Positions 32,501-60,267 of a stretch of 64,000 bases of DNA are shown here, in pieces; position 1 is the stretch's first letter; each line of letters starts with the position of its first letter. Made by a program: the position numbers and the translations under genes. The DNA is from Candidatus Poribacteria bacterium (lineage in GTDB: Bacteria; Poribacteria; WGA-4E; WGA-3G), in assembly GCA_963664215.1 (NCBI GenBank), contig OY761014.1. One strand, written 5' to 3'. Under the pieces are notes generated by a model, which worked only from the letters and a program-made list of their open reading frames with translations, made no database searches and had not been told where the DNA came from.

Positions 32501-35279
32501 CTAAACTCAAAACTGTAAGTGCCGGATCGAATTCATATAGAACCTGGTGCGTCTCGTTTTTTACGTCATAGCACACCAACGCATCCGATATATAATTTAC
32601 AGGGTTCGAGAGTAGATAGTAAATTACACCGTTCTCGTCGTCTACGATCCAATCCACTGGATACCGCAGCAATCTACCCCGTTCTACTGGGAAGGCGAGG
32701 TTCCCGTTTGAACGGATATGCGCTGCGAGAAAGTGCGAGGGGTTTCCAACTGTGGGAGGGGTTTGTAACCCCGAATCCCTCTCTTCTATGCGGGCATCCA
32801 CTGTCAATAAGACGGGTTCCTGTTTGACGAGTTTCTCTACGGCTGCCTGCGGCGAGAGATACCGATGCGGGGTTTGCGTTTTCACCAATACGGGGATCGG
32901 CGTTCTGTCCTCTGATACCGATAGATACCCGCCCTGGGTTCGCACCTCCGCCTCGGTCATAAATGCCGTGTCGTCTTCCGTCACGCCTTCGGGCGCGTTC
33001 TGAATCGCTTTCAGGGTCAAGGTCCGTGTGTGAACGTCTACAGCCGACCCTTTCGGGATCATCTCACCAAACGTGCCTTCCACCGTATAGCGTCCCTCCG
33101 CAACGGGAACCTCCTGCACCTCTTCATCGGCAGCGGGGAGCTCCAGTAGCTTCGGCACACCCGCCACTGTCTCGGAGACCTGTAGGTTCTTCAAAACATA
33201 ACTCGAATCTATGCACTGTAAACCGACCCTGCCTACGCCTAACCGGTCATCCACTTCGAAGATAACGCCTTTAAAAATCTCTTTCGACTGGGCGCTCTCA
33301 TCGGGTAACCGGAGGTTCACAAATACTTGCACCTCGTTGAGATACCCGCTCTCGTTGAGCGAATGCGTCTTCCAAAACGAGTCCGGGTTCGTTTCATTGA
33401 AATACCCACCGTTCTCGGAATCGCTACGCAGTGTCACCACGCACCGTCCACGCGTGAACTGGTTCAGCCGCACCCAGTCCAAGTTGTTGCTTATCTCTGG
33501 GAGATTCTCGCCATCGAGGTGTGCCGTTACGTCTATGCCCTCGATAAACACTTCATACCCCTGAACGTCCGTTATGGATACCAATTCCGGTTCCGATAGC
33601 ACGGTTACCCCAAATGCTGTGTCCGCAAAGAACCCCTGTCGTGTTCCCGCCCGCAACGCTACTTGATGGGTTGTGGGAGGGGTTTCTGTGGGAAGGGTTT
33701 CCAACCCTGATTCATCTGTGGGAGAGGTTTTCAACCTCGAATTCCTTATCTCAAGCCCTTCAGGCACCGTCGACCCATACACCCATTCCACGAAATCCGC
33801 GCCCTCAACATACTCCAAAAGGTTCACTTCTTGCACCAAACCGAGCGTCATTGTAGATATTTCTTTCCAGACAGGGACCTCTACCCCCGTGACGCTCACA
33901 TAAAAACCACAAGCGTTGAGAGCAGTTCCACCAATGGTATTGATGCCTCGCAACTGGATATACGCAGAACTCTCAACGGCTGCGTCCTCCGAAATTACCA
34001 AATACCGGTTCCCTTCTATTGATAGCCAGTCTGGCATCTCAAAGCCAACATCAAAGACGACATCGGTGGCATTGTGCATGAACTTGAACAGGTCTAACCG
34101 TTCTCCTGGGACAACCGCCTGCGGATAGATTGCACCGATAGGCTGCGGCAACGTCCATACCGAGACATCAAGGAAATGTAACTGACCACGTGCGTCATAC
34201 CGAAATAGGAATCCTTGAAAGTAAAATAGAGAGAGTGTAGCGTAGGTGATGAATTGGCGTGGCATCGGTATTCGTCGACTCGGTACTAATTCATACGCAT
34301 CGTTGTAGACATAGATGTAATGATCGCCTGTTGACCGAGGCTCAATATAGATGTTGTTCTGGCCACTTGCAAGATACCACGCGACATTCTCAGGTAACGC
34401 GTCATAGTCTCCGTCTGAAAGCGACACAGCGTCATAAGATTTACCGGATAGATCGTCGTCTTTAAGAATTCCAGCATGTATATCTTCTATGGGGATGACT
34501 TGAATTCCTCGTTCGTCTTCTGTTTTAGTAATGAGTAGCCTTCCGTCTTCGGTGAGTGTCCATGCTTGTTGTGAAGCGGTTATTGTTTGAAGTGTATCCT
34601 CCGCAGATTCCCATTGTTTTACGTGATCCTGTTCAGTTATGAGTTCTTCGTCCCTTCGCACAAGATATGTTTCAACATCGAGTCGTAATGCGATTTCGTC
34701 TTCGGTGAGTGTGTAAGTTGCATCGGTGTCTTGATTTCCTGTCCAGTCGTAGACGTGGATATTTCGACTATCTCGTAAATAGATATGTTCGCTATCAATA
34801 GATACAATTTGGTCATAGGGTTGATTGTTGGGGGTATCAGGGTCAGTATCTGTACTAAATAGAAGCCCCCAATCCGATTTTGGAAAATCATCGCTATAGC
34901 GCACCGTCACCACTGTTTCAGGGTTACCCTCCGCGACAGTATTCTCAGGCACCGTGAGTGTCACCTGCCCCGCACCACCAGACCCTGGAAACCGTAAGGT
35001 TGCCGCGTAGGCGCATCCTTTTCCGGTTAGCGCACTAACAAATGATACCTCCTCTGAGATGTCAGTGCCGGTGTCGTCCTCAGCGGTTAAGATTACATTT
35101 GCCAGAGAGAAGTCTGTTACGTTTGCTTCAAACGCGAACAGCACCGTGACATCATTTTTCTCTACCGGGTCTGGTGGATCCGCTTCCAGATCCACCTCCG
35201 TCAGATACAATGTGGGAGCGGTTTGTAACCGCGATTCCATAGGTCTTGGAATGGTAAGGATTTGTAGTTCCATATTCAT
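29550..35279 (-). CDS. Large tail-tip/host-recognition protein (1909 aa) with Ig-like domains
   Basis: Downstream of the tape measure; N-terminal Ig-like region (VTLTVPENTV); C-terminal putative-Ig (GLKFDPRTRTLSGTP..YTYTATDADG). Confidence 0.7.
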   Translation of the reverse strand: MNMELQILTIPRPMESRLQTAPTLYLTEVDLEADPPDPVEKNDVTVLFAFEANVTDFSLANVILTAEDDTGTDISEEVSFVSALTGKGCAYAATLRFPGSGGAGQVTLTVPENTVAEGNPETVVTVRYSDDFPKSDWGLLFSTDTDPDTPNNQPYDQIVSIDSEHIYLRDSRNIHVYDWTGNQDTDATYTLTEDEIALRLDVETYLVRRDEELITEQDHVKQWESAEDTLQTITASQQAWTLTEDGRLLITKTEDERGIQVIPIEDIHAGILKDDDLSGKSYDAVSLSDGDYDALPENVAWYLASGQNNIYIEPRSTGDHYIYVYNDAYELVPSRRIPMPRQFITYATLSLFYFQGFLFRYDARGQLHFLDVSVWTLPQPIGAIYPQAVVPGERLDLFKFMHNATDVVFDVGFEMPDWLSIEGNRYLVISEDAAVESSAYIQLRGINTIGGTALNACGFYVSVTGVEVPVWKEISTMTLGLVQEVNLLEYVEGADFVEWVYGSTVPEGLEIRNSRLKTSPTDESGLETLPTETPPTTHQVALRAGTRQGFFADTAFGVTVLSEPELVSITDVQGYEVFIEGIDVTAHLDGENLPEISNNLDWVRLNQFTRGRCVVTLRSDSENGGYFNETNPDSFWKTHSLNESGYLNEVQVFVNLRLPDESAQSKEIFKGVIFEVDDRLGVGRVGLQCIDSSYVLKNLQVSETVAGVPKLLELPAADEEVQEVPVAEGRYTVEGTFGEMIPKGSAVDVHTRTLTLKAIQNAPEGVTEDDTAFMTEAEVRTQGGYLSVSEDRTPIPVLVKTQTPHRYLSPQAAVEKLVKQEPVLLTVDARIEERDSGLQTPPTVGNPSHFLAAHIRSNGNLAFPVERGRLLRYPVDWIVDDENGVIYYLLSNPVNYISDALVCYDVKNETHQVLYEFDPALTVLSLASWDFDTFGVIVTDATDFDRSVNPVPKVPQSVALGYDASVSENTQIVFYQQSVHHYKPLIEKETAFRPQMGLHYWVGVSGLDYIWRGITRGVRDGFRFTSNEGSFVYRYAKGTKFGVACRESDGSVSALFTRNKDAYQNHLNFAFDMMESEDVFFASVEGTDTTSTLRIEKRLPILPPTRIGELEVWHVTGADRSGVRTYAQLETIAAASPQDTISVISSNLSGVLPENDYYWCRYHVRLRATVDLTSIQYKLFGAFDDGGKWAVVKPDSDGNFPASPTRYAEYAITSYNSNGDTSTVLSLASADIDAGDDFFIEVWHYEHLWGQAQYLEVKFNGSGDFEYITLTETFDGNAAFQPEPPPAAPTLIFERTQDLYHLREFDDAEEGAWLGVHEVLVDGDNIYLIVPVSRNGRDISTDAGVILYRYNQVTEEFRALAKYDFVQYGPCMLTKHDGEVYFVESPAVSYLFEARNRDIVFDASEAKGFLKRIHATGEIETLGNVYFDNDRAYGGQLPMRGLSFDNDLHFVMGYGDPASIGQPESDASRPENWQWFSFGRKYRYKVPVLPTEGSISEVLTSLATTVGATVSIDKNILSLQNRRARGAFVAAETVGVADTEIAYAFANHAFPATGYLLIGSELVRYRGRTATHFTGISRGELATSIEEHPKDALITFVHRPIEARNTMRSSEPYLEVTVSLDSDHLYNSIEEGSPVRSRVLDAASQSQFGSNPLQLALSTTEHELPWVEFISKQYLERFKDLAYLINVRVRAFYAVNLGEIVCFKYLADAPEVEGYLIAMQVMSVRTGSEFTTIRGRQVTPVVTPEVVLMADPNREYLITDGGDQVFLVDAGGNTTLWFGDALYYDVAPTFEVSTLPKLTLVQYVEMTPVVLPAGVSPIGNAFTYTFSASLGDQGLKFDPRTRTLSGTPIAVMAETDYTYTATDADGQVITLTQAIEVLPAIQAPVYVTDGAGGVLGVGGRSGVVRWQGY
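32733..32778 (+). repeat. REP-like pair in frame within the tail-tip gene
   Basis: gtgcgaggggtttccaactgtgggaggggtttgtaaccccgaatcc, read on the - strand as DSGLQTPPTVGNPSH. Confidence 0.8.
33673..33745 (+). repeat. REP-like triplet in frame within the tail-tip gene
   Basis: Encodes NSRLKTSPTDESGLETLPTETPPT on the - strand. Confidence 0.85.
35212..35238 (+). repeat. REP-like element in frame at the tail-tip gene N-terminus
   Basis: gtgggagcggtttgtaaccgcgattcc (compensatory gcgg/ccgc stem), read as ESRLQTAPT. Confidence 0.75.
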
Positions 35280-36080: not shown

Positions 36081-39000
36081 TCAGATATTCACCCGTCCAT
36101 TGAGTTGCTCCGTCCGAGACTGTTGCTCCAACAGAATATTATCGTTCAACGTTACAGGCACTGTAACCTCAATCGTTTGCGGGGGCGCAGCAGCAGGCGC
36201 ACGACTCGGTAAAGCAAGTCCCCCTGACACATGCACCGTGTTCCCCGACACACTGATCGTATCCGCAGTCAACACCGACGGGGACACGGGCTCCGCAAAC
36301 ATAGCTATCGCGTCTTCGATTTTCGCTGTCAATTCTAACGGGTCTACCGCTAAGCCCCCATTCAAAGTGGACAGCCCTTCCACCGTCGCCCGCAAATCCG
36401 CAGCAGGCTCCCCAAGCGCATCTACAATATCACTGAATGTCTCCGAGACCGTCTCAATACGCCCCAAGGGTCCAACAATATCCGGTAACGTCCCAACGGC
36501 TGCGTTTGCCGCCGTCGTCGCATCTCTTGCCGCAATCGCTGCATCGTTTGCCGCCGTCGCTGCGTCTTTTGAGGCAACCGCCGCATCCGAAGATACCATT
36601 ACCGCATCCGATTCAGGTTGCAAAAGCGGCGCGAGTGCCTCGCTCAGTGCCGTTGCCGTCGCCTGTGCTTGTGTTTCGATGTCCGCACGCTCGGTCTCCG
36701 TCCGTGCCTCCACATCCGCAACCGATCGCTGGTTCTGGAGATACTCATCCAGCCCGCGCCGTCCAAACACCCGTTCAATAAAGTTCTCATCCGTCAACCC
36801 ACCGCTTTCCAACTCCTGCCGATAGAAGTCGTACCCTGGACTTCCCGGTGTCAGGATCCCGAACTCCGTTTGGAAGTCCTGTACATCCCGATCCCGCTGA
36901 CGGTTTAGATCAAAAAGTTCCCGCTGATACGTGTCGTCCTCCGTAAGACGAGATCGCTGATCCGCTGTGAGATCCCCGAACTCCTCATCGAACAACCGCC
37001 GTGCCGTCTCTGTTTGTAAATCTTGGAGGTCGCGCTGATACTCCCGCTGGATGTCCTCTGCCGTCTGATTCCGATCCCGTTGTAAATCGTCAAGGTCTTC
37101 ATGGAACTGTTCTTCCAACGCAAGAAGACGGTCCTTGTGAGCTTCGTTCAATTTCTCAATCGCGTCTAAACGGTCTGCCTCGTTCTCTATCTGCGCGTCG
37201 CGCACCTCTTCAATCTCATCTTGCCGACGTGCCTCACGTGCGATCGCATCCTCGCGGAGTCGTTCTATCTCGGCTTGTGCACTTTCTTCGTCTCGGAGTC
37301 GATCCCGCGTAAACTGGTTCTGGGCAGTCGTCGCTCTACGCAACGCCTGCTCACGCCGCAACTGGTTGTCTTGGCGTAAGTTTTTTAGTGCTGTCTCGGA
37401 TAACGCTAATTCATCGATACGTTTCAGCTCATTGTCATAAAAAGCATTGATCGCACGGATCAGTGAACGCCTCGCCTCTTCAAAGCCCCGTTCCGTCGTC
37501 GCACCTGTCAGATTGAAACGCGCCCGTGCAACCGCATTTTCCAATAGGTTCGATTCAGGTGTGTCTTCAAGACGCGTGCGTGGCGGTGCGACCTCTTCTG
37601 TAGGGGTATCTGCTGTGGGAGGGGTTTCTAACCCCGATTCCCTTGTGGGAGAGGTTTCTAACCCCGACTCCCTGATTGCTAATGCCGTGCCTTGTAGAAA
37701 CCCCGAAGCCTCCGTAAATGCGTTCTCTAACGCAAAGCCTACGTCCTCAAGATTGGAAACCAACCGTAGATTCGCATCAAAAAGCCGATCTGTGAACTCG
37801 TTGGTGTACCGCGTCCGCGCATTCGCTAACGCATCTTCCGTGAAGATACCCACACCCGCTTCTATAAACGCTAACTGCTGATCTCGATACGCGCTTTCCG
37901 CTTCACCGAGTCGTGTATACGCCGCCGTGATGTCCGCCGGTGCGCTGTCTTCGCCTAATAGACGGATGGCATTTTCTGCGGATGTAATGTCGCCTTGCAA
38001 CGTCCGAAGGTGGTCCCGCTGCTGTGCCGTGAATCGGAAAACCTCTGCTGGGGGTTCCGGTTCGACCTCTTCTGCTGTGGGAGGGGTATCTGCTGTGGGA
38101 GGGGTTTCTAACCCCGATTCCCCTGTGGGAGAGGTTTCTAACCCCAACTCCCTGATTGCTAACGCTGTGCCTTGTAGAAATCCTGAAGCCTCTGTAAATG
38201 CGTTCTCTAACGCAAAGCCGACATCCTCGAGATTGGAGACCAACCGCAGGTTCGCATCAAAAAGCCGATCCGTGAACTCGTCGGTATACCGTGTCCGCGC
38301 ATTCGCTAACGCATCCTCCGTAAAAAGTCCCACGCCCGCTTCTATAAACGCTAACTGCTGATCCCGATACGCCGTTTCTGCCGCACCGAGGCGTGTATAC
38401 GCTGCCGTGATTGCGGCTGGGGTGCTGTCTTCGCCTAATAGACGGATAGCGTTTTCTGCCGACGTAATGTCGCCTTGCAGCGTCCGAAGCAGGTCCCGCT
38501 GTGGTCCCGTGAATCGGAAAACCTCTGTCGGGGGTTCCGGTTCGAGAACTTGTGGTGTTTCCGTTGGCGCGTCGTCCCCAATCGGCTGCACGACCGCCTG
38601 CTCAGGTGCTTGAATGTCAACAATCTCTTCAGGAATCCGTTGCACTTGGAGTGCCGCCCCTGAAAGGATACCCGACATATTCCGGATCGCCGTTACTAAC
38701 TGGAATCCAACGGCTTCCAGAGCATCTAAGAGCTCGCCGTTCGCCGCTTCAATCTCGTTACCGAACCGCTGACCTGCAAGCGTCAACGCACGCTGTCTCG
38801 CGTCTTCCGTGATGTGCGTCGCGTCCGTGATGAAAGCAACGATTTGCGTCTGGACTGCTTCTTGCGCATTCGCTAAATCCGTGTATGCTCTGGTAATCTC
38901 TTGGGGTGTGCTGGTGGCATCGAGGTCATCCACAACGCCCTGTGCGATCGCAACAGTTTCCTCAAGCGGTGCTAACACCCGCCGCTGCTCCGGTGAAAGC

Positions 39001-42662: not shown

Positions 42663-42814
42663 AGGAAGGTAGTGGGAAGGGGGCGTAACCCCTCCCCGAT
42701 GCCAGAAACAATTAACCTAAGTCGCTAAACTCGGATCTTGCTAAAGGCATTTCTATTTTAACAAACCTTCCAAAGAAATGTCAAGCGAGGTCCCCAAACC
42801 ATAGGAACTTGACA
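42663..42814 (+). ncRNA. Conserved pseudoknotted leader of GIY-YIG cassette 2
   Basis: Homologue of 27042-27192; tagtg/cgcta (G-U substitution keeps pairing), atgcc/ggcat, ggaagg/ccttcc, tgtcaag/cttgaca. Confidence 0.6.
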
Positions 42815-43945
42815 ATGGGCTGCATCTATAAAATCACCAATACGGTGAACGGTAAAAGTTACATCGGACAAACAATTCACGATGCCGTGAAAACTCGGAT
42901 ACGTCAGCATCTTAATGGGTATCCGCATGGAAGCAAACTTGTCAAAAAAGCCATTGCGAAATACGGTAAAGACGCTTTCACATATGAGATACTTCATGAT
43001 GGTATTATTCCTGAATTCCTTGAAACCCTTGAAATTGAAGCGATTGAGAAGTTCAATACGCTCGCTCCATACGGATACAACCTTCAGATGGGAGGCTCTC
43101 ACAGCTCACCCTCAGCGGAAACACGTCGAAAAATCTCTGAGGGAAATAAAGGTAAAACGCGCTCGGAGGAAACAAAACAAAAAATGTCTGAAGCCGGTAA
43201 AGGCAGAAAACATTCAAAGGAAACCAGACGGAAACTTTCTAAAGCACATAAAGGTAAAAAGCTTTCCAAAGAACACCGACGGAAAATCTCGGAAGTACAA
43301 AAAGGTAAATATGTCTCAGCGGAAACGAGGCGAAAAATGTCCGAGAACAGCGCATCGAAACGCCCTGAAGTTCGGCAGAAAATTTCTGAAGCTAACAAAC
43401 GTAGAGTCTATAAACCTCACTCAGAAGAAGCCAAACGCAAAATGTCTGAATCACGCAAAGGTAGAAAATTTTCAGAAGAACACCGAAGGAAACTCTCAGA
43501 AGCACTTACAGGTAAAACTGTCTCAGAGAAAACTCGGCAGAAACTTTCTGAAGCCAACAAAGGTAAAACGATTTCAGACGAAACCCGACGGAAACTCTCG
43601 AAAGCCGGTAAACGTAGAAAGCTTTCAGAAGAACACCGCCGAAAAATATCTGAAGCACATAAAGGCAAAAAGCATTCAGACGAAACGAGGCGGAAAATAT
43701 CTGAAGCCGGTAAAGGCAAAAAGGCGTGGAACAAAGGCAAAAGGCACTCAGACGAAACGAGGCGGAAAATATCTGAATCACGCAAAGACGAAAGGTATTT
43801 ACCATCACGCAACTTGTTCTTTTCCCTTCCTGACACACTTTCACTAAAAGAAAAACGTAAAATCTTATTGAAAAAGTTTTCAGATGTTGTAAAACCAGGT
43901 ACACTTTACCGTTGGATACGCCAATGGAACTCTGAAGAAAATTAA
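42815..43945 (+). CDS. Free-standing GIY-YIG endonuclease with many NUMOD3-like repeats
   Basis: CIYKITNTVNGKSYIGQT; more than 10 S.E(T/H)RRK(I/L/M)SE repeats; C-terminal TLYRWIRQW. Confidence 0.92.
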   Translation: MGCIYKITNTVNGKSYIGQTIHDAVKTRIRQHLNGYPHGSKLVKKAIAKYGKDAFTYEILHDGIIPEFLETLEIEAIEKFNTLAPYGYNLQMGGSHSSPSAETRRKISEGNKGKTRSEETKQKMSEAGKGRKHSKETRRKLSKAHKGKKLSKEHRRKISEVQKGKYVSAETRRKMSENSASKRPEVRQKISEANKRRVYKPHSEEAKRKMSESRKGRKFSEEHRRKLSEALTGKTVSEKTRQKLSEANKGKTISDETRRKLSKAGKRRKLSEEHRRKISEAHKGKKHSDETRRKISEAGKGKKAWNKGKRHSDETRRKISESRKDERYLPSRNLFFSLPDTLSLKEKRKILLKKFSDVVKPGTLYRWIRQWNSEEN

Positions 43946-44173
43946 CTACTTCTTCCGATTTTTGTTCGTTTCCCTCACATACGCGTTGAAAAATAGGGTG
44001 TTGTATGAAAGCTTGTAATTGATGTCACGCCCCGGGCACATCTCGTTCGCCGGAGTCGTCCCCAACTCCTTGAACATTGCGAACTGGTTCGCCATCCGAA
44101 TTCTCGCTTGTGGATTTGTCTCCAGAAGATCGTAGAAATCGCCGAAGAGATGCCACCCCCGCGGCGGGCACAT
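43946..44173 (-). CDS. Tail assembly chaperone second ORF (gpT-like), probably reached by frameshift
   Basis: Overlaps the 3' end of 44025-45026 in the +1 frame; lies between chaperone and tape measure. Confidence 0.6.
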   Translation of the reverse strand: MCPPRGWHLFGDFYDLLETNPQARIRMANQFAMFKELGTTPANEMCPGRDINYKLSYNTLFFNAYVRETNKNRKK

Positions 44174-45026
44174 TCACAACGCGGTGACTCTCAAAGAGGG
44201 TCCTCATAAACCGTTCACTCAGCAATCCCACCGGATACGGCGCATCCGACCCGTGGGAGGGGTTTTCAACCCCGATCTCCTCGTATGACAGTTGCGGGTC
44301 AACAATCATCGCCGGCACTAATACCCGACGACGTGCGGTATTTCTCGCCATCTCTGCCGATAACTCTTCACTCGACATCTCTAAATACTTCTTCTGCTTT
44401 CCGATCGGGTAAAATTCAAACGTCTCTCCGCCCGTGATCGCAAATGCATCCGCGGGCACACCGCGACGGACGGTCACTTGATAGATCGCATCGGTTTCGA
44501 GTTGATTCACGACAGAAAACGCCTCCGCAAACGAATCCAGCATCACGCGAGACCTCGTTTCAATCGGAACCCCTTCACCCCGCCCTCTATACGAAAACTG
44601 CGGATCTACCAGCATGCCAGAGAGCAGCAACCTTGAGAGTTCTATATTCCGTTCCTCTTTCACGACCGGATCCTTTTCCCGATCCGCGTATTCCGTCATT
44701 AATTTTAACTGCTGAATTTCGAGTTCCAAGGGAATCCCATCACGAACCGACACTTGGAAGAAGGCTTGATTAAAAAACATTTCCACTGTCTTGACAGGCT
44801 TCCCAAGTGTCTCCAACACCTCCCGTGTGATCTTCGGTGCGTCCGAGGACTCTACGACTCTCGCCGACATATCACGAAAATTCACTTCCACGAGTGCCGT
44901 CTCTCGCTCGTCGTGGTCAAAAATATCGGGCGTAAAGGTGGGCAAATCCGATGCATCCACCACCTGCGCAGCCCTTCGCGATGAGATTCGAGCATCTAAT
45001 TGTTCCTGGATACTTTTCTTTGGCAT
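44025..45026 (-). CDS. Tail assembly chaperone (gpG-like)
   Basis: Position between tail tube and tape measure; internal two-fold repeat (MLVDPQFSY / MIVDPQLSY). Confidence 0.65.
   Translation of the reverse strand: MPKKSIQEQLDARISSRRAAQVVDASDLPTFTPDIFDHDERETALVEVNFRDMSARVVESSDAPKITREVLETLGKPVKTVEMFFNQAFFQVSVRDGIPLELEIQQLKLMTEYADREKDPVVKEERNIELSRLLLSGMLVDPQFSYRGRGEGVPIETRSRVMLDSFAEAFSVVNQLETDAIYQVTVRRGVPADAFAITGGETFEFYPIGKQKKYLEMSSEELSAEMARNTARRRVLVPAMIVDPQLSYEEIGVENPSHGSDAPYPVGLLSERFMRTLFESHRVVNVPAAGVASLRRFLRSSGDKSTSENSDGEPVRNVQGVGDDSGERDVPGA
44253..44280 (+). repeat. REP-like element in frame within the chaperone gene
   Basis: gtgggaggggttttcaaccccgatctcc, read as EIGVENPSH (different frame from the ESGLETPPT copies). 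Confidence 0.8.
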
Positions 45027-49652: not shown

Positions 49653-51014
49653 CTATTCCAATACTTTCAGTGCCTTGGCTCCTGTTTCGCCCAACACCAC
49701 GACGTAGATCGCTTTCTTCGGCTGATACGAAATCCAGCCCCAGATCTCGGAGCAGACGATGTATTCGACCTGCTTGAGCATATCCCGCGTCGTCTCGATG
49801 ATGTCTGTGTTCATTTGGGAAACGTACTCGACCGCTTTCCGCTTGTCATATACAACAAACGCATTGTGCTTCGTCGAACTGCCCCCGGTGCCTGCCTGAA
49901 TCCGATCCTGAAGGTAGTCGTGCCACCCGACCCGAACCCCCTGCGCCAACTGGTTCATTACGGAGAAGCTCCCACCATACCCGCTCATGACGGCGTTGGG
50001 ACGCTCATTCATGTTCACCAGCATCACATTCGTGCCAGCAACTTTTGCCAATTGGAGATCCGTGATATCCGGGTCATACCCGATCGCAGATGTCAACATA
50101 TAGGAACGTTTGAACTTCTTCTGGATCGAGAGCCACGCTTTCGGGGTCATCGTATCGGTTGCCTCGGAATCCAGTTCCTGCAGCCGAATCAGCGTGCCAC
50201 CGAGGTCGTCGCCACCTGCACCATGCAACATCGTCTCAAGCCCTTCATCCACTTTCGCCATGATCCGCTGGACAGCGATCTCCTCGACGTGTTCCATCGC
50301 TTTGTCAATGAACTCGACTTCCCGAAGGTGTTCATACGTGAATGGAATCGCTAACATCCGCTTTTTCGGCTGGATGGGACGCTCAGAGGTGTCGAAGGTC
50401 GCCATCGGGGGATCCGCTCCAGGGGTCCGCTGCTCCTCACGGAAGGCATCTTCATCATACTCAAGGATCGTCGCACGGTAGTCTTTCTTGCTCGTCTCTG
50501 CCATGCGCGTCGTCAATTCCTCAAGCGCGATGTCCACTTCCACGTCTTCGTCCCAGTGCGCCATCGCATCGTGGTAAGGGGTGAGCGTTGAGCCAGGCGG
50601 CGTATCATGCACATCTTGGAAAGTGCCAGCACGTTCCCAACGCGCACGTCTTTCGGCTTTGCGTGCCGCCGCTTCGATCTGCGGGCGATACACCGTACTC
50701 CGATACGCGTTCAAACACATCTCTTTGAGGGCTAACTCTTTCGCAGGATCGCCAATCACGTCTTCACAGCGAGTCGGCCAGACACCCGCAGCAGGGTTGC
50801 AGACGGTGGTCATCTCCAAATCGTCAAGCACGACCTCAAACGCTGAAAGCCGTTCGTCATCGGCACCCAACTCGCCGTCTTTCTCCGGGTCATATTGGGA
50901 ATCAATGTACGCAGAAAACGGCATGCCCGCATCCGCGGCTTGCTCGACAAGCCCAGCGCGCTGCGATGGATTCCCATACCTTTCTACGATTTCTCGTGTC
51001 GTCATTAAAGACAT
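49653..51014 (-). CDS. Major capsid protein (HK97 fold, inferred)
   Basis: 453 aa after decoration/protease genes; RMLAIPFTYEHLRE, VYDKRKAVEYV..DIIETTRDMLKQVEYIV. Confidence 0.8.
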   Translation of the reverse strand: MSLMTTREIVERYGNPSQRAGLVEQAADAGMPFSAYIDSQYDPEKDGELGADDERLSAFEVVLDDLEMTTVCNPAAGVWPTRCEDVIGDPAKELALKEMCLNAYRSTVYRPQIEAAARKAERRARWERAGTFQDVHDTPPGSTLTPYHDAMAHWDEDVEVDIALEELTTRMAETSKKDYRATILEYDEDAFREEQRTPGADPPMATFDTSERPIQPKKRMLAIPFTYEHLREVEFIDKAMEHVEEIAVQRIMAKVDEGLETMLHGAGGDDLGGTLIRLQELDSEATDTMTPKAWLSIQKKFKRSYMLTSAIGYDPDITDLQLAKVAGTNVMLVNMNERPNAVMSGYGGSFSVMNQLAQGVRVGWHDYLQDRIQAGTGGSSTKHNAFVVYDKRKAVEYVSQMNTDIIETTRDMLKQVEYIVCSEIWGWISYQPKKAIYVVVLGETGAKALKVLE

Positions 51015-51091: not shown

Positions 51092-51592
51092 CTACCCCGG
51101 CATTGTGATCAGCGCATGTGTGGTGTCAAACTCCAGCACCGAGCCTTTGCCCTTCAAAGCCGCAACTACGGCGTTAAGCTGCGTCCGAGCGGCGTTGTAA
51201 GCTGTCAACTTCTCCGCATCGGTATCTATGTCCGTCGCAGAAAGTTCCGCAAGGTCGGCAGGCAACGCTACCGCTTTCACATACCCTTTCGCATTACTCG
51301 GTCCGAGTCCAGCCACAAGTTTATCGCCACGCTTGACGGTCACACCGCTCGCAAGCGGGACACGCAACCCACCGAATAGGTACGCACCGGTGATCTGTGT
51401 GTCGTCAACAGCGATGATCACGCCGTCAAACGCTTCGCCATCCGCGGGTAATTCGGCTCTGCCCTCGTCATTGATTTTATAGACCTTGCCGACTGCCGTG
51501 CTACGGTGTTTGGCGGTTATGTCGTATGTGATCGTCTTCTTATCATGCCGGATACTCGTCGTCACCACATGCGGGTGTTCCTTTAAAGCCAT
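51092..51592 (-). CDS. Capsid decoration/stabilising protein (putative)
   Basis: 166 aa between protease/scaffold and capsid genes. Confidence 0.55.
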   Translation of the reverse strand: MALKEHPHVVTTSIRHDKKTITYDITAKHRSTAVGKVYKINDEGRAELPADGEAFDGVIIAVDDTQITGAYLFGGLRVPLASGVTVKRGDKLVAGLGPSNAKGYVKAVALPADLAELSATDIDTDAEKLTAYNAARTQLNAVVAALKGKGSVLEFDTTHALITMPG

Positions 51593-51635
51593 CGTTTTCT
51601 ATACCTCCTGTAATTGGTTGTCGGTTAAAGAGAGT

Positions 51636-51713
51636 GTGGGAGGGGTTTGCAACCAAGAAAGTGGGAAGGGTTTTGAACGAGAAAGTGCGAGGGGTTTTCA
51701 ACCCCGAATTCCC
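51636..51713 (+). repeat. Intergenic cluster of three GTGG-hairpin REP-like units
   Basis: gtgggaggggtttgcaacc..gtgggaagggttttgaac..gtgcgaggggttttcaaccccgaattcc. Confidence 0.8.
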
Positions 51714-51726
51714 TATCCCCTCTTCC

Positions 51727-53090
51727 CTATCGCCATCTCCGCTTCCGTTGACGCGGGGTCCGTTTCGTTCGCTCTGGGGGTGGTTCATGGTCGTCGGTTG
51801 ATCTTCTGCCCGCCGGTAACGCCGCATCGCCTTTTTTCTTGTTCTGCGCGATATGCTCTTCGAGTTTCTCCAAGGGCATGTCGCCGTAGTACTCGCGGTG
51901 ATACTCCTCATCGAAGTCGTCACCATACGCACGGTTACCCTGCTTGATCGCCTCTTCAACACGCGACTCCCGATACGCCTCGCCGTCCTCGGCAGCTTTC
52001 GTCAGATCGGCGATCTCGTCTTTCTGTTCCTCAACCTTCTCGCGGAGATCCGTCACTTCCGTTTTCACCTTCTCTATTACGGCATCGGGGTCATCGGTAG
52101 ACCGCACGTCCTTGAGATCCAAATCCTCCCGCAACGTCGTGACGATCTGCTGACGCGCCGTGTCCACATCCTGTGAGGCGTTCGTGAGATCAGCGATCTC
52201 GTCTTTCTGGGTTGAAACAGTGGTGCGAAGGGTCGATACCTCAGTCTCCAATGCCTTCACAACTTCATCGGGTTCGTCCGTCGAACGGATACCCGGAACC
52301 TTTAGCGCATCACGCAATTTCTCAATCCACTCATTATCTGTCACTGTAAATTCCTCCATAAAACTTCGCATCCGAGCCGCGACTTCGCTCTCAGGTATGT
52401 CGGTAGGCATTGGGTTACCTAACCCGTAAGCGGTTGGGTCACCCCACCCGTACATGAGAAACCGCTGCTTCTCGATGGAAGTGTGTCGGTTAGAGCCAAA
52501 CTCAACGAGGGAGACCTCTTTCAGCCTCGCATCGAAGATCGTGTAAGTAGCCTTTTCCATTTTGCCATCTTTGTTTTCGTACTGTTTACCCATCTTGTGA
52601 GTGCATTGCCCCTCACGTTCGGGTTCCCAATCCCAATAGGAGTACCGCCGTATCGGAGATTACACAAATTACAGATCTCACGCGCATCGTAGAATCCGAT
52701 AGAGACCTGGTTGATTAATTCGTGTTCAATTGCCCTGATCAATTTCTCAGAAGTTCGGAACTCACGACTGCCCCCATCATATTCCATGTTCTTGAGAATG
52801 AAGAAATCGATCAGCAACTCGTTTTTGTCAGTGAGAATCGCATTCGCTGAACGTCCATAGCCGAAAGATCGCCACGCGTGATGGTCCTTCAACGACACGC
52901 CGGGCTTCGCTTTCGCGTCCTTCTCAAAGTTTTTGAGAGTGGTCTTGGGATCCATCATAGAATTATGCCGATCCAACTTGTCATTACTTGCGGTGATGCG
53001 CACCCAGTATTTGTCATCATCTTCTTCGGGGAGATCCGAATGCATCGCGCGAGTACCAATGCTAACAGGGAAAAGTCTTATATCTTCCAT
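51727..53090 (-). pseudogene. Prohead protease-scaffold fusion split by a 1-nt deletion near 52645 (mutation or assembly error)
   Basis: ASNDKLDRH, DHH, VSIGF, ICNLC in frame A continue as PIRRYSYW..QCTHKMG..LKEVSLVEFGSN plus coiled-coil repeats in frame B; SD gagga at ~53097. Confidence 0.75.
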
Positions 53091-53288: not shown

Positions 53289-54272
53289 ATGGAAAATCCT
53301 GGTATCTATATTCTCACGTCCCCAAGCGACAAACAGTATGTTGGTAAAGATAGTAATTTGCCCAAACGTGCTACACAACATTTGCGCGGAAAAGAACCTA
53401 CGTGTCCTCGTATCCATAATGCTATCAAAAAATATGGTGCTAACACCTTTTCTCTTCAAATCATCCAATACCCCGGCATTTCGCAAGAGGCTTTGAATGC
53501 GGTGGAACGCTGGTGGATTCGCCGACTTCAAACACTGTCTCCATCGGGCTATAATCTGACCGAGGGAGGTGAGGGTGTTATCCCCTCCGAAGAAACACGT
53601 CAAAAAATAAGTAAAAAAGCCTCTAAACGCGTTGAAGAAGGCACACATAATCTTCTGGGGACGAACAACCCAAGTCACAAACGCATCGCGGACGGAACAC
53701 ACCCTTTTCTTGACAGTGAAATTCAGAGGCGTGCTCAAATAAAACGAGATGCGGTTAACAAAAAACGACTTGAAGAGGGTACACATAACTTCCTTGATAG
53801 TGATTTTCAGCGTCACAACAACCAAAAACGAATCAAGGATGGCACCCATAATTTGCTCGGAAAGGAGAATCCAAGCCATAAACGCGTAGCGGATGGCACA
53901 CATAACTTTCTTGGGGATAGCAATCCAATGAAACAACGTTCTAAAAATGGCACACACCATTTTCTTGGTAGTGATTTTCAGCGTCGCCGCGTCAAGGATG
54001 GTACGCATAACTTCCTCGGGAGTAGCCAAAATCGTAAACGACTTGAGGATGGCACACATCACTTCCTGGGCGAGAACAACCCAATGAGAAGGCTTGCCAA
54101 AGAAGGCAGACATCCGAGTACCCTCAAACGCCAAAAAGCCGAATGGTGCTATATCATTGCGTTGTCTCGGTTTTGGTATGAAATTCATGATTATACCCTT
54201 AAGCGTCGTGCCGAGTTCCTCTCGAAAGATATTCCCGATACGTCAAATGCCGAACAGGAATACCTCTTTTAG
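53289..54272 (+). CDS. Free-standing GIY-YIG endonuclease with GTHxFL repeats
   Basis: GIYILT..KQYVGK..R; GYNLTEGGEG; eight GTH(N/H/P)(F/L)L(G/D) units. Confidence 0.85.
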   Translation: MENPGIYILTSPSDKQYVGKDSNLPKRATQHLRGKEPTCPRIHNAIKKYGANTFSLQIIQYPGISQEALNAVERWWIRRLQTLSPSGYNLTEGGEGVIPSEETRQKISKKASKRVEEGTHNLLGTNNPSHKRIADGTHPFLDSEIQRRAQIKRDAVNKKRLEEGTHNFLDSDFQRHNNQKRIKDGTHNLLGKENPSHKRVADGTHNFLGDSNPMKQRSKNGTHHFLGSDFQRRRVKDGTHNFLGSSQNRKRLEDGTHHFLGENNPMRRLAKEGRHPSTLKRQKAEWCYIIALSRFWYEIHDYTLKRRAEFLSKDIPDTSNAEQEYLF

Positions 54273-54278: not shown

Positions 54279-55691
54279 TTAATTGACGATGCCCTCTCTG
54301 ACTTGCATCCAATCTAAACTCCCATACGTCCGCAGCCCTGCGGAATGCCTGTCTTTTTCCGATTTGAACTTCTCAAGCGCGTCCTGATAGTCCTTGTCTT
54401 CAATGCCCTCCATACCCTGCAGCTCCTTGAGTTTTTTGAGGTTGTCAATCTTCGTCCCCTCCGCTTCCGCCATGGCTTTCACGTCCTGCGGATCCGGTGT
54501 GTTCTCGAAATAGAACTGGACCTTCCCTTGCCGTCCTTCCGCCCGTAAGACGTACCCAAGGAGCGTCGACATGACACCCGCAACCGTCGACTGGATACTC
54601 GATATGTTGATTCGGTAGTCACGTCTCTGTTCAACGGCATGGGACTCCGCGACCGATTCATTACTGTGCTGTTTTATGGGGGTGCTGCCCGTAGCTCTAC
54701 CCACCCGACGGTCATATAGTCTCATCAGCCCATCGACCAATCCGAAGAAACTTGTCTGCATCTGACCGCCCTTCGGCATTTCGACTTCCACGATGTCTAA
54801 ATACGCATACCCCTCGTTCGGCTTTAAAGTTGAGTACCGCTGGTTGATACCCGCAAGGAAGTCTTGGATAAATTCGTCTTCCTTATCAACATCACCGATG
54901 ACATCCGCCGGCATGAAGTCTCGCAACTTCTCCGAATCCACCTTAAACCCTGCCCGCGCCCAGCCTTGCGATTCCAAGACTCTCCGAAAATCGTGCATCA
55001 CCCCTAACATCCGAATCACATCTAACGGTGCCGATTCCAACATAGACCTGCCGAAGGGTTCATTCGGGCCCGCATTGAACGGCACATACATCACCGTCGG
55101 ATCGTCCTGTAGCGATACCCATTTCCCTTGCTGCCATTGACCGAGCTCCCAGTCGTTGCCGTGACGATTGAAACGCGCAACATAAGGATCCATCACCGCA
55201 ATGTCCATCGCCATGTCCGCCGCTTCGTTGAGTTCCAGCTCCCAAAAAATAGCGCCGCCTTTGTAGATGCCGGCAAACACTCTGTCAATCAACACGTCCG
55301 GATCATGATGTTTCGCCGCAAGCCTGTCAAAGAAACCATCGATAACCGGGGTTGCACCTTTCGGCTTCACTTGGTAACCCCAAGATTCGTTCGCGTTCCG
55401 CAGGAAATCCTCATACGCTTTTTTGACCTCCGGGCTGATACTCGTGACGAGTTTCATGAACTGATCCACCGGCAGATGTAGCAGTTCCTCTTCTGTCCAG
55501 TTTTTCAGTTGCCACACACTTCGCGACCGTTCCGGCGGGGCAACATGATACATCGTGTGCTGCCGATGCGGATCCTGCATCGAGACGCGACCGCCACTCA
55601 ATGCCCGTGTGTTACGGTGCTTCGCAATTGCTTTTGGATTCCTGCCGAAAATCCGTTTGCTGTAGTGTTGGAGTGTCCTTTGTAGATTCAT
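54279..55691 (-). CDS. Portal protein
   Basis: 470 aa after the terminase; NEPFGRSMLESA motif. Confidence 0.75.
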   Translation of the reverse strand: MNLQRTLQHYSKRIFGRNPKAIAKHRNTRALSGGRVSMQDPHRQHTMYHVAPPERSRSVWQLKNWTEEELLHLPVDQFMKLVTSISPEVKKAYEDFLRNANESWGYQVKPKGATPVIDGFFDRLAAKHHDPDVLIDRVFAGIYKGGAIFWELELNEAADMAMDIAVMDPYVARFNRHGNDWELGQWQQGKWVSLQDDPTVMYVPFNAGPNEPFGRSMLESAPLDVIRMLGVMHDFRRVLESQGWARAGFKVDSEKLRDFMPADVIGDVDKEDEFIQDFLAGINQRYSTLKPNEGYAYLDIVEVEMPKGGQMQTSFFGLVDGLMRLYDRRVGRATGSTPIKQHSNESVAESHAVEQRRDYRINISSIQSTVAGVMSTLLGYVLRAEGRQGKVQFYFENTPDPQDVKAMAEAEGTKIDNLKKLKELQGMEGIEDKDYQDALEKFKSEKDRHSAGLRTYGSLDWMQVREGIVN

Positions 55692-55882
55692 AAAACAGTT
55701 TCAAAATGTGGTAAGGAAGCTTTATCACGTAAAAAACGGGTTTCGGTGAGCATTTCAGCTGAGTCGTTTATCCTAACAACCACATTTTTTCTGTCAGGTG
55801 AAACCCTTAATATCACGGCTTTCAAACTTGATCCGTCAGGTAATACCACAAAGACTTTTTGACCTTTCTTGTATTTCCGCAT
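55688..55882 (-). CDS. Small SH3/KOW-like hypothetical protein
   Basis: KKGQKVFVV..KAVILRV pattern; coupled to both neighbours. Confidence 0.5.
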   Translation of the reverse strand: MRKYKKGQKVFVVLPDGSSLKAVILRVSPDRKNVVVRINDSAEMLTETRFLRDKASLPHFETVL

Positions 55883-55883
55883 A

Positions 55884-57317
55884 CTATCGCATTTTCACCG
55901 ATCCGTGGATGACGCGTCCGCTACCGACACCGCGTCGTTTTCCGAGACTCTGCACCAGATAACTCGTGCCGTCCACCCCGTGATTGTCACCGACGACATC
56001 CTCATCGTCTCTGCGCGTGCCTTTCAATTTCTCGGCATAACTCAAACTCAAAAATTCGTCTGTGACCTCAACCGGACGGTAATCTTCCTTCAGGTCTTCA
56101 TCTGGCGGATGCACCAGCCGATCCCGTAAGAAAAAGATCGCCGGTTGACCTGTGGCGTCCTTCTTCAGCCGTTCCTTGACAGCGTCGATCTGCGCAACCC
56201 TGTCTTTTTTCGGTTCGTTCACCCGGAATTTAGCACGCTTGAGCTGCTCTACACCGTCCTGATCCTCACTGTCTACCGCGGCATACCGTATCCGATCGTC
56301 TCTATCACAGTTATCTGTTATCAGCTGGATCAAGTCCGGTTTCGTTAACCGCGTTTTGTAGATTTCCTTATAGGCATAGAGCCTATCGTCTGGAGAGTGC
56401 GCCCACCAGATAACGCTCGCAGGATTACGGAACCCCCAGTCAACACTCAAATAGCGAGGCCAATTCGGCATGATGGTTACGTCAACGATGTGCGTCTCCG
56501 GCTCAAAATCGTCAAAAACTAACCCTTCACCCGATGCCCAGAGTCCGAGGAAACCCCGCTTAAACCTTAACCCATCCAGATTCTTGAGTTTCTCTACACG
56601 CCGTAAGCCGCTATCCGAAAACAGATCCATGATTTGATCGAGCAACTTCGGATCCGGGTTGTTCTCAAACGCAATCTTGAAAGCCCTCAGTCGATCTGAA
56701 CCCTGTTGTATGATCTCAGGGTTGTCCAAGAACGACATCCGGAAATACTTAAGTTTGTCGTCTTTCGTTTGATCGCGTATCCAGTGATTCGGAACGTTCG
56801 GATTGCAATCCCCGACAAGCATCGCAATCGGCATCGTCCCAGCCCGTTCAGAGACACGCGCCGTCAGTTCGTCCCACGCATCAAAAGGCACGAGTTCGGC
56901 TTGGTTGACAAACCCTGCATCAAAGAAATCGGATAACAGGTTCTGCGGCTTGTCCAACCCGTTCATGTAGATCCGAGTACCGTTGTCGTACTCGAAAAAC
57001 TCCGGACGCTCACCCCCAAACCGTGTCACGTCTCTGCCTTCAGGGTTATCATCGCGACTCGGCGGTTTGTAACCGAGATATTTCTCATACGTCGGGATGA
57101 TGTTCCGATACACTCGGTTCAGAGACCTATGAATGAAGGTCATCCGAGCCCCAGGCCAATCCAGCGCCAACTTATCTATATAGGCACACAGACTATACGT
57201 TTTACCAGCATCATAAGTGCCGCCCGCAATTTTCACACTTGCCTGCGAACCCCACAGATCCGCCATCGAACCATATACAGCAAAAGCACCCTCACGGAAC
57301 TGGTAAACGTTACGCAT
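55884..57317 (-). CDS. terL: Terminase large subunit (PBSX/SPP1-like)
   Basis: Walker A GGTYDAGKT; VGDCNP coupling motif; nuclease SVDWGFRNP and DNHGVDG. Confidence 0.92.
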   Translation of the reverse strand: MRNVYQFREGAFAVYGSMADLWGSQASVKIAGGTYDAGKTYSLCAYIDKLALDWPGARMTFIHRSLNRVYRNIIPTYEKYLGYKPPSRDDNPEGRDVTRFGGERPEFFEYDNGTRIYMNGLDKPQNLLSDFFDAGFVNQAELVPFDAWDELTARVSERAGTMPIAMLVGDCNPNVPNHWIRDQTKDDKLKYFRMSFLDNPEIIQQGSDRLRAFKIAFENNPDPKLLDQIMDLFSDSGLRRVEKLKNLDGLRFKRGFLGLWASGEGLVFDDFEPETHIVDVTIMPNWPRYLSVDWGFRNPASVIWWAHSPDDRLYAYKEIYKTRLTKPDLIQLITDNCDRDDRIRYAAVDSEDQDGVEQLKRAKFRVNEPKKDRVAQIDAVKERLKKDATGQPAIFFLRDRLVHPPDEDLKEDYRPVEVTDEFLSLSYAEKLKGTRRDDEDVVGDNHGVDGTSYLVQSLGKRRGVGSGRVIHGSVKMR

Positions 57318-58142: not shown

Positions 58143-58199
58143 CAGTCAAAAATAGTATACTCTGCCGAACCCAACCCCTGAAACCACATTCAACATCCT

Positions 58200-59054: not shown

Positions 59055-59278
59055 TGGACAAGATCATAATCGATAAGCATACGTATGCCTGTGCTCTCTC
59101 TGAACTCGCATTCACGGTGGGGACCCTCAAAGGCATCAACGGCGCACTACAGGCGTTGGGAGCGGAAATCGACCTTGATAAACTAAACCGGCTTATCGGG
59201 GACACACATCAACGCTCAGAAAAAGCACTCGAATTACTGCTTCAACTGATTTTAACAGCAGAGGTGGAAAAGAAATGA
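59054..59278 (+). CDS. Hypothetical helical protein
   Basis: Translationally coupled (TGATG). Confidence 0.6.
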   Translation: MDKIIIDKHTYACALSELAFTVGTLKGINGALQALGAEIDLDKLNRLIGDTHQRSEKALELLLQLILTAEVEKK

Positions 59279-60267
59279 ACGACCTAAGAACCCAGTTACC
59301 ACAGTGTCCGCTTGAATACCAAGTCCCGCACATTCCCGCTTCACACACCGCACTCGTGATTGAGATCAACGCTGCCGACATCGAGTGGCAGGAGAAGATG
59401 CTCCCCTGGACGCTCGCGGGGCTTATCAACAATACCGACATCGTGATGAAAGGCGTGCATCTCTACATCGCTTGCGAGGACGGGACCCAAGAACGCATCA
59501 GAACCGCACTCAAGAAAATCGATCTGCCGCCCGGCACCCTCATCACGAAAAACCCGGAAAGCAACCAACCGCTTATCCTCTTCGGAAATTACGGACACAG
59601 GTACGATTCCGTCTGTATCCTTGACGTTAACTACTGGGCGTTCCGTGGTATCGGTAAACGCCAAGACGCCTCCGACATTAAACTCCCCTTTGGACACGTC
59701 CTACGCCATACCTGGGGCTGGGCTGTCGCAGATGTCAGTCTCCACCACGAAAACGATATGGATGTTAAAGACACTTGGGTTCGGATGTCTGAACAAGAAA
59801 GTGGGAGGGGTTTTCAACCCCGAAATCCCCTACGCCAAAAACTCGCCAAGCATCTCATCGGCGCAGCAGAACGAGCGAAATGGCTCCACGCTGCGAACTG
59901 TGCTGTCCATGGAGAGGACTACGAAAAGAAAGATCAGAACGTCGCCGCCTACTTCTTCAATGAAACCGAAGCGAACTGGCATTTCGACACGTCCCTCCTG
60001 CACTACAGTGCCGCTGAAGTGAATACGCCTTACTTCGCCGAATGGGCACCCGAATGGAAGCACCTTGGCACCGAGGCACTCATCGCGCTCTGGCTGCTGA
60101 AGACAAAACAACACGCCTATAACCTTCAAGACTCGCTCATGATAGAGTCCAACTACACCCGAGCCCAATATCCCCGGTTGTGTAATATGGAATTCGCGGA
60201 TGCCAAGCAATTCAGTTTTGCCGCAAAGGAACTCCTGGGCGCACAACTGAACATTGCGATGAATTGA
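59275..60267 (+). CDS. Hypothetical protein, weak GT-A glycosyltransferase-like pattern; contains an in-frame REP
   Basis: LPWTLAGL..HLYIACED..YDSVCILDVN; REP at 59801-59828 read as SGRGFQPRNP. Confidence 0.55.
   Translation: MNDLRTQLPQCPLEYQVPHIPASHTALVIEINAADIEWQEKMLPWTLAGLINNTDIVMKGVHLYIACEDGTQERIRTALKKIDLPPGTLITKNPESNQPLILFGNYGHRYDSVCILDVNYWAFRGIGKRQDASDIKLPFGHVLRHTWGWAVADVSLHHENDMDVKDTWVRMSEQESGRGFQPRNPLRQKLAKHLIGAAERAKWLHAANCAVHGEDYEKKDQNVAAYFFNETEANWHFDTSLLHYSAAEVNTPYFAEWAPEWKHLGTEALIALWLLKTKQHAYNLQDSLMIESNYTRAQYPRLCNMEFADAKQFSFAAKELLGAQLNIAMN

Follow-up and report, generated by a model that had tools for sequence, protein, structure and literature searches.

How does a hairpin of some 30 nucleotides come to stand, in frame, in the structural genes of a phage? 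The question is raised by a 64,000-nt stretch of DNA (the window) on contig OY761014.1 of Candidatus Poribacteria bacterium (GCA_963664215.1), a segment of Poribacteria chromosome (1 to ~27 kb) joined to a tailed-phage genome (~27–64 kb). The phage part carries copies of a palindromic motif that an earlier inspection, the sequence-only reading, had likened to repetitive extragenic palindromes (REPs) and their REP-associated tyrosine transposases (RAYTs). We revisited this motif in the window, in sister phages and in host genomes. With a probability of about 0.8, it is a GT(A/G)G-headed REP of a Poribacteria host family with a RAYT partner, and it has repeatedly entered phage DNA.

A hairpin repeat shared with Poribacteria chromosomes

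The exact pattern GTGGGAGSGGTTTN{2,3}AACCSCGA has six matches in the window, all on the + strand, and none in 100 dinucleotide-preserving shuffles (expected 0.00). A mismatch-tolerant search combined with a repeat finder returned a single family of 14 copies (D14). These are confined to the phage part (29.5–59.8 kb), and the tolerant search found none between 1 and 29 kb. The positions listed in the sequence-only reading thus belonged to a real family, but three of them (33673, 37600 and 38077) are the starts of partial units of 15–19 nt that lie 5' of full units. Its statement that every copy shows GTGG on the + strand, whatever the strand of the gene, holds for 14 of 14 copies. Eleven units lie in four long open reading frames (ORFs) and three are intergenic. 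The window's tandem units stand 19–30 nt apart from start to start, which leaves no room for spacers, and a CRISPR array was rejected on this ground. An Rfam search gave no match.

The full unit, GTGGGA-GGGGTT-TNN-AACCCC-GAW-TCCC, measures ~30 nt (range 23–33 nt) and is longer than the pattern first described. It folds as a bulged hairpin with a 10-bp stem and a 3-nt bulge (GGGA-GGGGTT / AACCCC-(GAW)-TCCC), with a free energy of -7.7 kcal/mol as DNA and -13.9 as RNA. Compensatory stem changes had been noticed before, and we found them again: the doubly compensated stems AGGGTT/AACCCT, GAGGTT/AACCTC and GCGGTT/AACCGC occur in the window, and GGGATT/AATCCC and GGGCTT/AAGCCC in host loci, five stems in all. 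Among candidates chosen by their head and tail anchors only, six of six Watson–Crick pairs were formed by 51 of 68 sequences from phage loci and by 117 of 198 from host loci. The hairpin and the covariation of its stem are established. Since compensated stems are also present as host variants, they need not be changes that arose in place.

Scanning one genome per species, we detected the motif in at least 118 blocks of 8 kb, on both strands. About 60% of the matches listed are from Candidatus Poribacteria, and metagenome-assembled genomes (MAGs) of Verrucomicrobia, Anaerolineales, and delta- and gammaproteobacteria are among the remaining sources. Among the matches listed, 71 Poribacteria blocks hold 158 copies, of which 117 lie outside ORFs of at least 120 aa and 38 form inverted pairs ~46 nt apart (REPINs) with the structure CTCTTGTGGGAGGGGTTTTCAACCCCGATTT...AAATCGGGGTTGAAAACCCCTCCCACAAGAG. 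The classic doublet, CTCTTGTGGGAGGGGTTTTCAACCCCGATTT-(~20 nt)-AAATCGGGGTTGAAAACCCCTCCCACAAGAG, is found in L043, L013, L086 and L101. Direct arrays have periods of 24–68 nt, GTAG-headed variants occur in L017, L101 and L137, and in-frame host copies were seen in genes for an AMP-binding enzyme, an Eco57I-like methylase, a GH2 protein, an alpha-2-macroglobulin and others. The Poribacteria blocks with the motif contain no gene for a homologue of any phage protein of the window. These doublets and arrays are the intergenic multicopy family expected of a REP, and they establish that phage and host repeats are one family. In one block (L101 4136–5280), ~25 co-oriented REPs follow each other at periods of 44–68 nt; their 'spacers' are themselves repeated, and the array is not a CRISPR array.

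In a second approach to the family's identity, we searched for its enzyme with phmmer, using the RAYT sequences of Additional file 5 of PMC3733652 as queries (a regex motif search had failed). Chromosome OZ244563.1 encodes a RAYT (L057:4079–4561) that matches a Pseudomonas fluorescens RAYT with E = 4e-29, scores 123.9 bits on NCBIfam NF047646 (cut-off 80) and matches Pfam Y1_Tnp. It carries an HUH motif (MPDHIHSV) and a tyrosine motif (YCYENPVRKG), and is flanked by a degenerate REP doublet upstream and by four tandem REPs plus an inverted copy downstream. The RAYT of L137, on a 5.4-Mb chromosome, is 71% identical to it, and the REPs on its flanks are again variants of this family, with GTAG and GTGG heads. 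Here the RAYT ORF overlaps the flanking REP (2960–3013), and its last residues, ESSGLKTPPTEIRG, are REP-encoded, an in-frame REP tail. The assignment to the REP/RAYT type made by the sequence-only reading was therefore borne out, and with it the existence of a cognate RAYT, which stands beside the same REP on two chromosomes of Poribacteria size; this adjacency is established. Both enzymes are predicted partners of the family and would bind, cleave and transfer single-stranded REP DNA. Homologues occur on many chromosomes of 5–6.5 Mb, some of them named Poribacteria. A Y1 transposase from a Desulfobacterales MAG (L056) was set aside, as it is not flanked by REPs.

Repeated and polymorphic gain of units in phage genes

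The 11 coding units are read as (E)SGLETPPT (eight units), as (I)GVENPSH or VGNPSH (two) or, in the + strand 330-aa ORF, as SGRGFQPRNP (one). Because one DNA unit is read in three ways, conservation is at the nucleotide level, as had been proposed; the intergenic copies agree with this. The coding units occupy seven sites in four phage ORFs (Table 1), and for every site we found a relative without the REP.

The one clean insertion is that in the 330-aa ORF. An empty allele (P0122/L134) reads ...GGATGTCTGAAC|CGTTACACC... with the junction TCTGAAC|CGTTACACC, and a filled one (P0121/L133) has GAGAAAGTGGGAGGGGTTTTCAACCCCGAATTCCC between the same flanks, a net gain of 33 nt. In the window the insert is present and 30 nt have been lost in addition. 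Small inserts of other kinds also occur in this ORF family (L135 ~10520–10620, P0171; also P0123, P0154/P0175 and, in alignment A2, P0147/P0186/P0188/P0202). One is a nested palindrome of 96 nt (GGTCGGGCGAG...CTCGCCCGACC, peptide VGRASVGFQPTESNGLRADSLANPRPTDE), located exactly at the REP's MSE|P site; a second, of ~33 aa (ASAEKS...NPDFSE), lies at a different site.

In the 333-aa ORF, the REP occupies a linker after the conserved MIVDPQLSY that is hypervariable among relatives. The window's peptide is common to five close relatives, more than 25 relatives have an unrelated acidic linker, e.g. APVDDEAD, and two (P0021 and P0023) have a REP at this place that is read in another frame, as ESGLETPPT. 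At the DNA level, loops (TTGAAAA versus TTAGAAA) and a 2-nt offset distinguish two independent acquisitions, each of which replaces the ancestral linker. That one site was filled independently is thereby established. The name 'tail chaperone' that this gene had been given stands as far as gene position goes: the ORF lies where a tail assembly chaperone is usually encoded, and in L131 the gene just upstream of its orthologue matches Pfam Phage_tube_2. Neither this ORF nor the neighbouring 600-aa ORF has a family match.

For site 3 of the tail-tip ORF, the sole relative fragment that reaches it (L129) is REP-free and reads DPEATG. Logan contigs from two other sponge metagenomes, and a minor variant in the source run X1 (depth 9.6 versus ~50), are likewise REP-free, with ~20 nt encoding DPEATG in place of 65–69 nt. 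At site 2, L123 and L129 have a short unrelated stretch and no REP peptide, and contigs of X1 and X2 skip 33655/33652–33757, with the flanks read and the stretch between them not resolved. At site 1 both relatives read GLNGA. The tape measure of L123 is ~80% identical to that of the window over the whole alignment, and far more similar outside the extra repeat and the C-terminal part. Its linker is RRIPVPEVPTEDPTSTDTP, where the window has RELGLETSPTGESGLETPPT with two REP units. The second pair of units (38077..38154) is a paralogous copy within a 480-nt internal duplication (37602–37901 / 38082–38381), which is 91% identical over 300 nt. Spanning 37602–38381, it adds a 160-aa repeat together with that pair; L123, with one repeat unit fewer, has 1921 aa against 2112 aa in the window.

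Metagenome runs vary in the same way. The 15-nt partial unit of 37600..37674 is missing in runs X2–X4, and the 51.6-kb intergenic cluster is shortened or missing in X3 and X4. Presence/absence polymorphism, among sister phages as well as within one metagenome, is thus established, and the gain of units by these phages has been repeated and recent. In contigs of X2–X4, from three other sponge metagenomes, the portal start (55691) is linked to a REP-like sequence of 29 nt, which suggests an extra REP in the terminase–portal spacer (55691–55884) of related phages that is absent in the window.

At all coding sites except that in the 330-aa ORF, an existing flexible linker gave way to a REP of comparable length. 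The idea that REPs create Pro/Thr-rich linkers in virion proteins therefore failed for most sites, since a Pro/Thr- or acid-rich linker was already there. AlphaFold models of the 330-aa and 333-aa ORFs are poor (mean predicted local distance difference test, pLDDT, 48.9 and 43.4) and show only low-confidence coil at both insert sites.

Table 1. REP sites and phage genes of the window.
Feature	Position	Strand	Location and remarks
Starts of the 14 D14 units	29498, 32733 (truncated), 32752, 33688, 33718, 35212, 37615, 37645, 38095, 38125, 44253, 51636 (degenerate), 51685, 59801	+	
REP unit, AGGGTT/AACCCT stem	29498..29527	+	intergenic; flanked by the stop of the tail-tip ORF (29550) and the start of the following late gene (29474)
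Truncated unit (19 nt) + full unit	32733..32781	+	tail-tip ORF aa 833-849, ERDSGLQTPPTVGNPSH (site 3)
Partial + two full units, 30-nt spacing	33673..33747	+	tail-tip ORF aa 511-536, IRNSRLKTSPTDESGLETLPTETPPT (site 2)
REP unit, GCGGTT/AACCGC stem	35212..35241	+	tail-tip ORF aa 13-23, PMESRLQTAPT (site 1)
Degenerate partial + two REP units	37600..37674	+	tape-measure linker aa 1582-1607
Partial + two REP units	38077..38154	+	tape-measure linker aa 1422-1448
REP unit	44253..44282	+	hypervariable linker of the 333-aa ORF, aa 249-258, EEIGVENPSH
Intergenic cluster, two degenerate + one full unit	51636..51714	+	between late genes 51092-51592 and 51727-52593
REP unit	59801..59830	+	330-aa ORF aa 176-186, SGRGFQPRNPL; sense strand carries GTGGGAG
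Tail-tip/virion structural ORF, 1909 aa	29550..35279	-	phrog_4406 match; three REP sites
Tape measure, 2112 aa	36081..42419	-	two REP sites; Pro/Thr-rich inter-repeat linkers
333-aa ORF	44025..45026	-	between the 600-aa ORF and the tape measure
Major head protein	49653-51014	-	phage part
Portal	54279-55691	-	phage part
Large terminase	55884-57317	-	phage part
330-aa ORF	59275..60267	+	early-type block; hot spot of small palindromic inserts

Copy number was compared in sister phages retrieved via relatives of the 333-aa ORF. Per ~21 kb we counted 21 copies in L130, 18 in L122, 3 in L123, one each in L129 and L131 (a variant in the latter) and 0 in L132 and L135. Copies occur as singlets, as direct tandems and as half-plus-full copies, and relative to the phage genome 57 of 57 phage-locus copies are co-oriented. 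In L130 and L122 most copies lie 4–30 nt past stop codons, in intergenic gaps stretched to 170–260 nt. Late-gene spacers follow a recurring order: the stop codon is followed by a G/T-rich stretch (GGGTTTTGGGTT), then by at least one REP, by C/A-rich heptamers (TAACCCR)n, and finally by a Shine-Dalgarno sequence and the ATG (for example L130 6287–6489 and 1007–1243; window 51593–51640). The G/T stretch is complementary to the C/A stretch, and the two could form base pairs with the REPs between them. Cluster density per kb is 0.24 in the phage part of the window and 0.48–0.53 in L122 and L130, against 0.03–0.05 in the host, a crude estimate in which the cluster that had selected a block was left out and only additional ones were counted; the phage values are ~5–15 times this background. 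More distant IMG/VR relatives of the 333-aa ORF (L124–L128, 49–57% identity) have no REP, and a pattern scan of IMG/VR gave 3 unrelated single matches only. The relatives treated as REP-free (L131, L132 and L135) hold no other dispersed REP-like hairpin family.

How the copies may have entered and spread

The explanation that we favour is that a host RAYT, an HUH/Y1 enzyme acting on folded single-stranded DNA, copies REPs into phage DNA. REPs survive where a hairpin of ~30 nt is tolerated. Such places are found just past stop codons in the late operon and, within large virion proteins, in linkers that are disordered and rich in Pro/Thr or acidic residues; there the open frames of the REP encode linker-like peptides. 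The perfect co-orientation probably stems from insertion into one exposed single strand, which might be the lagging-strand template while the phage is integrated or the strand displaced in phage replication. Activity of the RAYT on only one of the two single strands, GTGGGAGGGGTTTNNAACCCCGATTCCC or its complement, would explain the orientation. A cause at the DNA level is favoured because the copy in the + strand gene keeps genomic, not transcript, orientation, although this is a single event. In the host, six complete chromosomes sampled on both sides show opposite singlet orientation between coordinate halves, with one conflicting locus (OZ251998), and singlet polarity differs between assemblies.

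Several observations weigh against the RAYT as the mover of the phage copies. No inverted doublets, the proposed mobile unit, were found among the 57 phage-locus copies. Density in the phages is above the crude host estimate, an excess that passive colonisation does not predict. At the coding sites other than the 330-aa ORF, the replacement of 15–50 nt also fits recombination or gene conversion. GC skew, compared locally in 8-kb blocks, does not track singlet polarity and is too noisy to place the replichores. The window encodes no RAYT detectable by phmmer, and in CAXXUA, the closest sampled genome, the REP is present in many blocks while the one RAYT retrieved is flanked by a different REP, GTAGGAGGGAACTCCGATTCCCGA. 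This RAYT is 52% identical to that of L057, and since it is flanked by a different REP family, Poribacteria hold at least two REP/RAYT pairs. At L136 3480–5200, large GTAGGAGGGAACTCCGATTCCCGA arrays lie on both sides of their own RAYT, 52% identical to that of L057, within a type I restriction-modification locus.

Of the other explanations, selection on RNA survives best, although we consider it rather unlikely as the main cause. Here the phage would retain REPs as intercistronic hairpins of the late polycistronic mRNA, which would shield the messages upstream of them or define where processing occurs; the common orientation would result from selection at the transcript level, and the host REP would be merely raw material. 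The post-stop position of most L130 and L122 copies, behind co-directional late genes, is the one reported for uni-REPs of other bacteria (PMC3733652), and the RNA hairpin is stable. But sister phages with 0–3 copies have these genes too, with only short gaps between them, which makes the copies dispensable, and the copy in the 330-aa ORF does not follow transcript orientation. Among host singlets that lie between co-directional genes, neither orientation is preferred (19 versus 13), and relative to neighbouring genes there is only a weak tendency. REPs are not intrinsic terminators either, because no T-run follows the hairpin on either strand; none of the terminator-like sites found is a REP.

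Somewhat less probable still is spread within the phage by recombination, gene conversion or replication slippage, without RAYT transposition. Units would pass between similar intergenic cassettes and into Pro/Thr-linker sequence that resembles the 3' half of the REP (ACCCCTCCCACA, read as TPPT), and orientation would be kept automatically. This agrees with replacement in place of clean insertion at coding sites, with the frequent junctions of half and full copies in phage loci (GTGGGAGGGGTTTTCAACT|GTGGGAGG...), with common flanks such as CCCAAAGGAT, with the L123 linker end ...GATACCCCTACAGACCCCTCTACAG, which resembles the REP tail, and with the 480-nt duplication that carried a REP pair along. 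However, the 330-aa ORF gained a clean 33 nt between unrelated flanks, the coding copies have no flanks in common, and a separate route would still be required to bring the family into the phage in the first place. Neither selection on messenger RNA hairpins nor spread within the phage is exclusive of entry from the host family by its RAYT; both are compatible with it.

We regard as doubtful, and more so than these two, a bolder proposal in which the host REP/RAYT system targets phage genomes preferentially, or has a reservoir in them, and the RAYT acts on the strand exposed in replication. If true, it would account for the bursts (0 to 21 per 21 kb), the strict co-orientation and the half-copy scars. 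REP content would then record the host RAYTs that a phage has met, a host-linkage marker for uncultured phages; phages could ferry REPs between genomes, and cleavage of phage REP hairpins by RAYTs might affect phage fitness. To our knowledge, the prevailing view is that REPIN-RAYT systems are inherited only vertically, which carriage between genomes by phages would contradict.

A phage regulatory site (operator, stoperator-like, packaging or replication signal) is suggested by strict co-orientation and by confinement to the phage part of the window, but is very improbable: unlike such sites, the motif is abundant on both strands of Poribacteria chromosomes, in blocks without phage-protein homologues and beside RAYTs, and is absent from close sister phages and from more distant IMG/VR relatives. 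A linker peptide conserved at the protein level, to which the ESGLETPPT-like frame of 8 of the 11 coding units might point, is refuted by the two other readings, the intergenic copies and the unrelated linkers of relatives.

Genomic setting, known systems and meaning

The left part of the window looks cellular. Its genes include those for a WD40 protein, proteins with lamin tail domains, a radical SAM enzyme and a protein that carries a type IX secretion sorting domain. Positions 3933–5677 match a 760-kb contig of a Candidatus Poribacteria MAG at 82% identity. At 9238–19657, a unit of ~3.7 kb occurs as three tandem paralogues, each encoding a ~1000-aa lamin-tail-domain protein; between the units, 300-nt stretches are 74–100% identical. 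The gene at 20543–24250 (- strand) encodes a 1235-aa protein with Big_1, dockerin, FlgD_ig and type IX secretion sorting domains; it contains 12-nt tandem repeats (GTTGTGGGTGTC)n and has paralogues in the Poribacteria blocks L010, L043, L061, L062 and L082. In the right part, tailed-phage genes occupy the - strand, and a block of + strand ORFs begins at ~58 kb. Three GIY-YIG homing-endonuclease genes, all on the + strand (27051–27974, 42809–43945 and 53289–54272), lie between late genes of the opposite strand; two of them carry NUMOD3 repeats. Since contig depth at 52.7–54.3 kb is 3–9 times that of its neighbours in run X1, the last of these genes may be multicopy in the sample. Megablast of 24 kb of the phage part against GenBank phages gave no match, and a scan of JGI metagenomes found no relative. 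The contig names of L135 (94,864 bp) and L131 (203,521 bp) end in '_c', which perhaps means circular; in that case a relative of the phage may be a circular molecule of ~95 kb, not an integrated prophage.

The layout of the unit probably parallels that of Pseudomonas REPs, TGTGGGAG-stem-loop-stem-CGAAT. We compared it with the systems described in the REP/RAYT literature (Nunvar 2010; Bertels & Rainey 2011, PMC3116915; Ton-Hoang 2012; Corneloup 2021, PMC8266576), in which mobility is ascribed to REP doublets (PMC3116915) and RAYT action on single-stranded REP DNA is followed in a cleavage and strand-transfer (CST) assay (PMC8266576). With GTAG-type REP and REPIN-RAYT systems it shares the GT(A/G)G head, the bulged imperfect palindrome, a high-copy host family with inverted doublets, and a RAYT flanked by its own REPs. 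In contrast to them, the host phylum is Poribacteria, and the phage copies are singlets or direct tandems on one strand, denser than the crude host estimate. The mobile elements of Pseudomonas are REP deserts (PMC3390384).

In-frame REPs as such are known. Members of the GTAG and CGTC families were described in otherwise intact ORFs, most frequently in Opitutus terrae (PVC superphylum), whose GTAG-20 family is GTGG-headed (Di Nocera, De Gregorio & Rocco 2013, BMC Genomics 14:522, PMC3733652). As here, single or grouped REPs are translated in frame and missing from homologous proteins. Those genes are chromosomal, however, many of them for DNA repair, whereas ours are a phage tape measure, a tail-tip gene and other phage ORFs with pre-existing linkers; the words 'phage' and 'tail' are absent from the supplementary files of that study, which list no phage or tail gene. 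That study is the direct precedent. The parallel with Rickettsia palindromic elements (RPEs) drawn in the sequence-only reading is sound as an analogy, since these palindromic repeats also stand in frame without destroying protein genes (Ogata 2000), but not as membership: the Poribacteria unit is short and GT(A/G)G-headed, and no sequence relationship is known. The smaller RPE-4 and RPE-6 have been reassigned to the CGTC REP class (PMC3733652).

Classic RPE-1 elements measure ~100–150 bp and are specific to Rickettsia. In IS200/IS605 elements, an HUH/Y1 enzyme reportedly recognises single-stranded DNA hairpins, and insertions are said to be oriented to the lagging-strand template. Over a segment that is replicated in one direction, insertion of this kind would leave all copies in a single orientation; unlike these elements, the REP contains no transposase, and its tie to replication is our proposal. 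Full-text literature searches combining REP, REPIN or RAYT with phage, prophage or tape measure returned no report of REPs colonising phage structural genes. The repeat is thus a bona fide REP/RAYT family with intragenic members, unusual in its phage carrier, its density and its strict co-orientation without doublets. New are the carrier, including tape-measure and tail-tip genes, the swing from 0 to 21 copies between sister phages, and co-orientation without doublets.

As a rule, REPs are taken to mark old, stable chromosome; here a phage lineage of an uncultured sponge symbiont is richer in the host's REP than the crude host estimate. Its filled and empty alleles, which occur together in the same metagenomes, offer a natural system for the study of REP copying and strand choice. 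In tail proteins, REPs are a source of length and linker variation, although the gain of the tape measure is chiefly a duplicated unit that carries a REP pair. Poribacteria join the phyla with at least two REP/RAYT pairs. Phages are a possible vehicle for the horizontal movement of REPs, and the repeats are a candidate signal for linking uncultured phages to their hosts.

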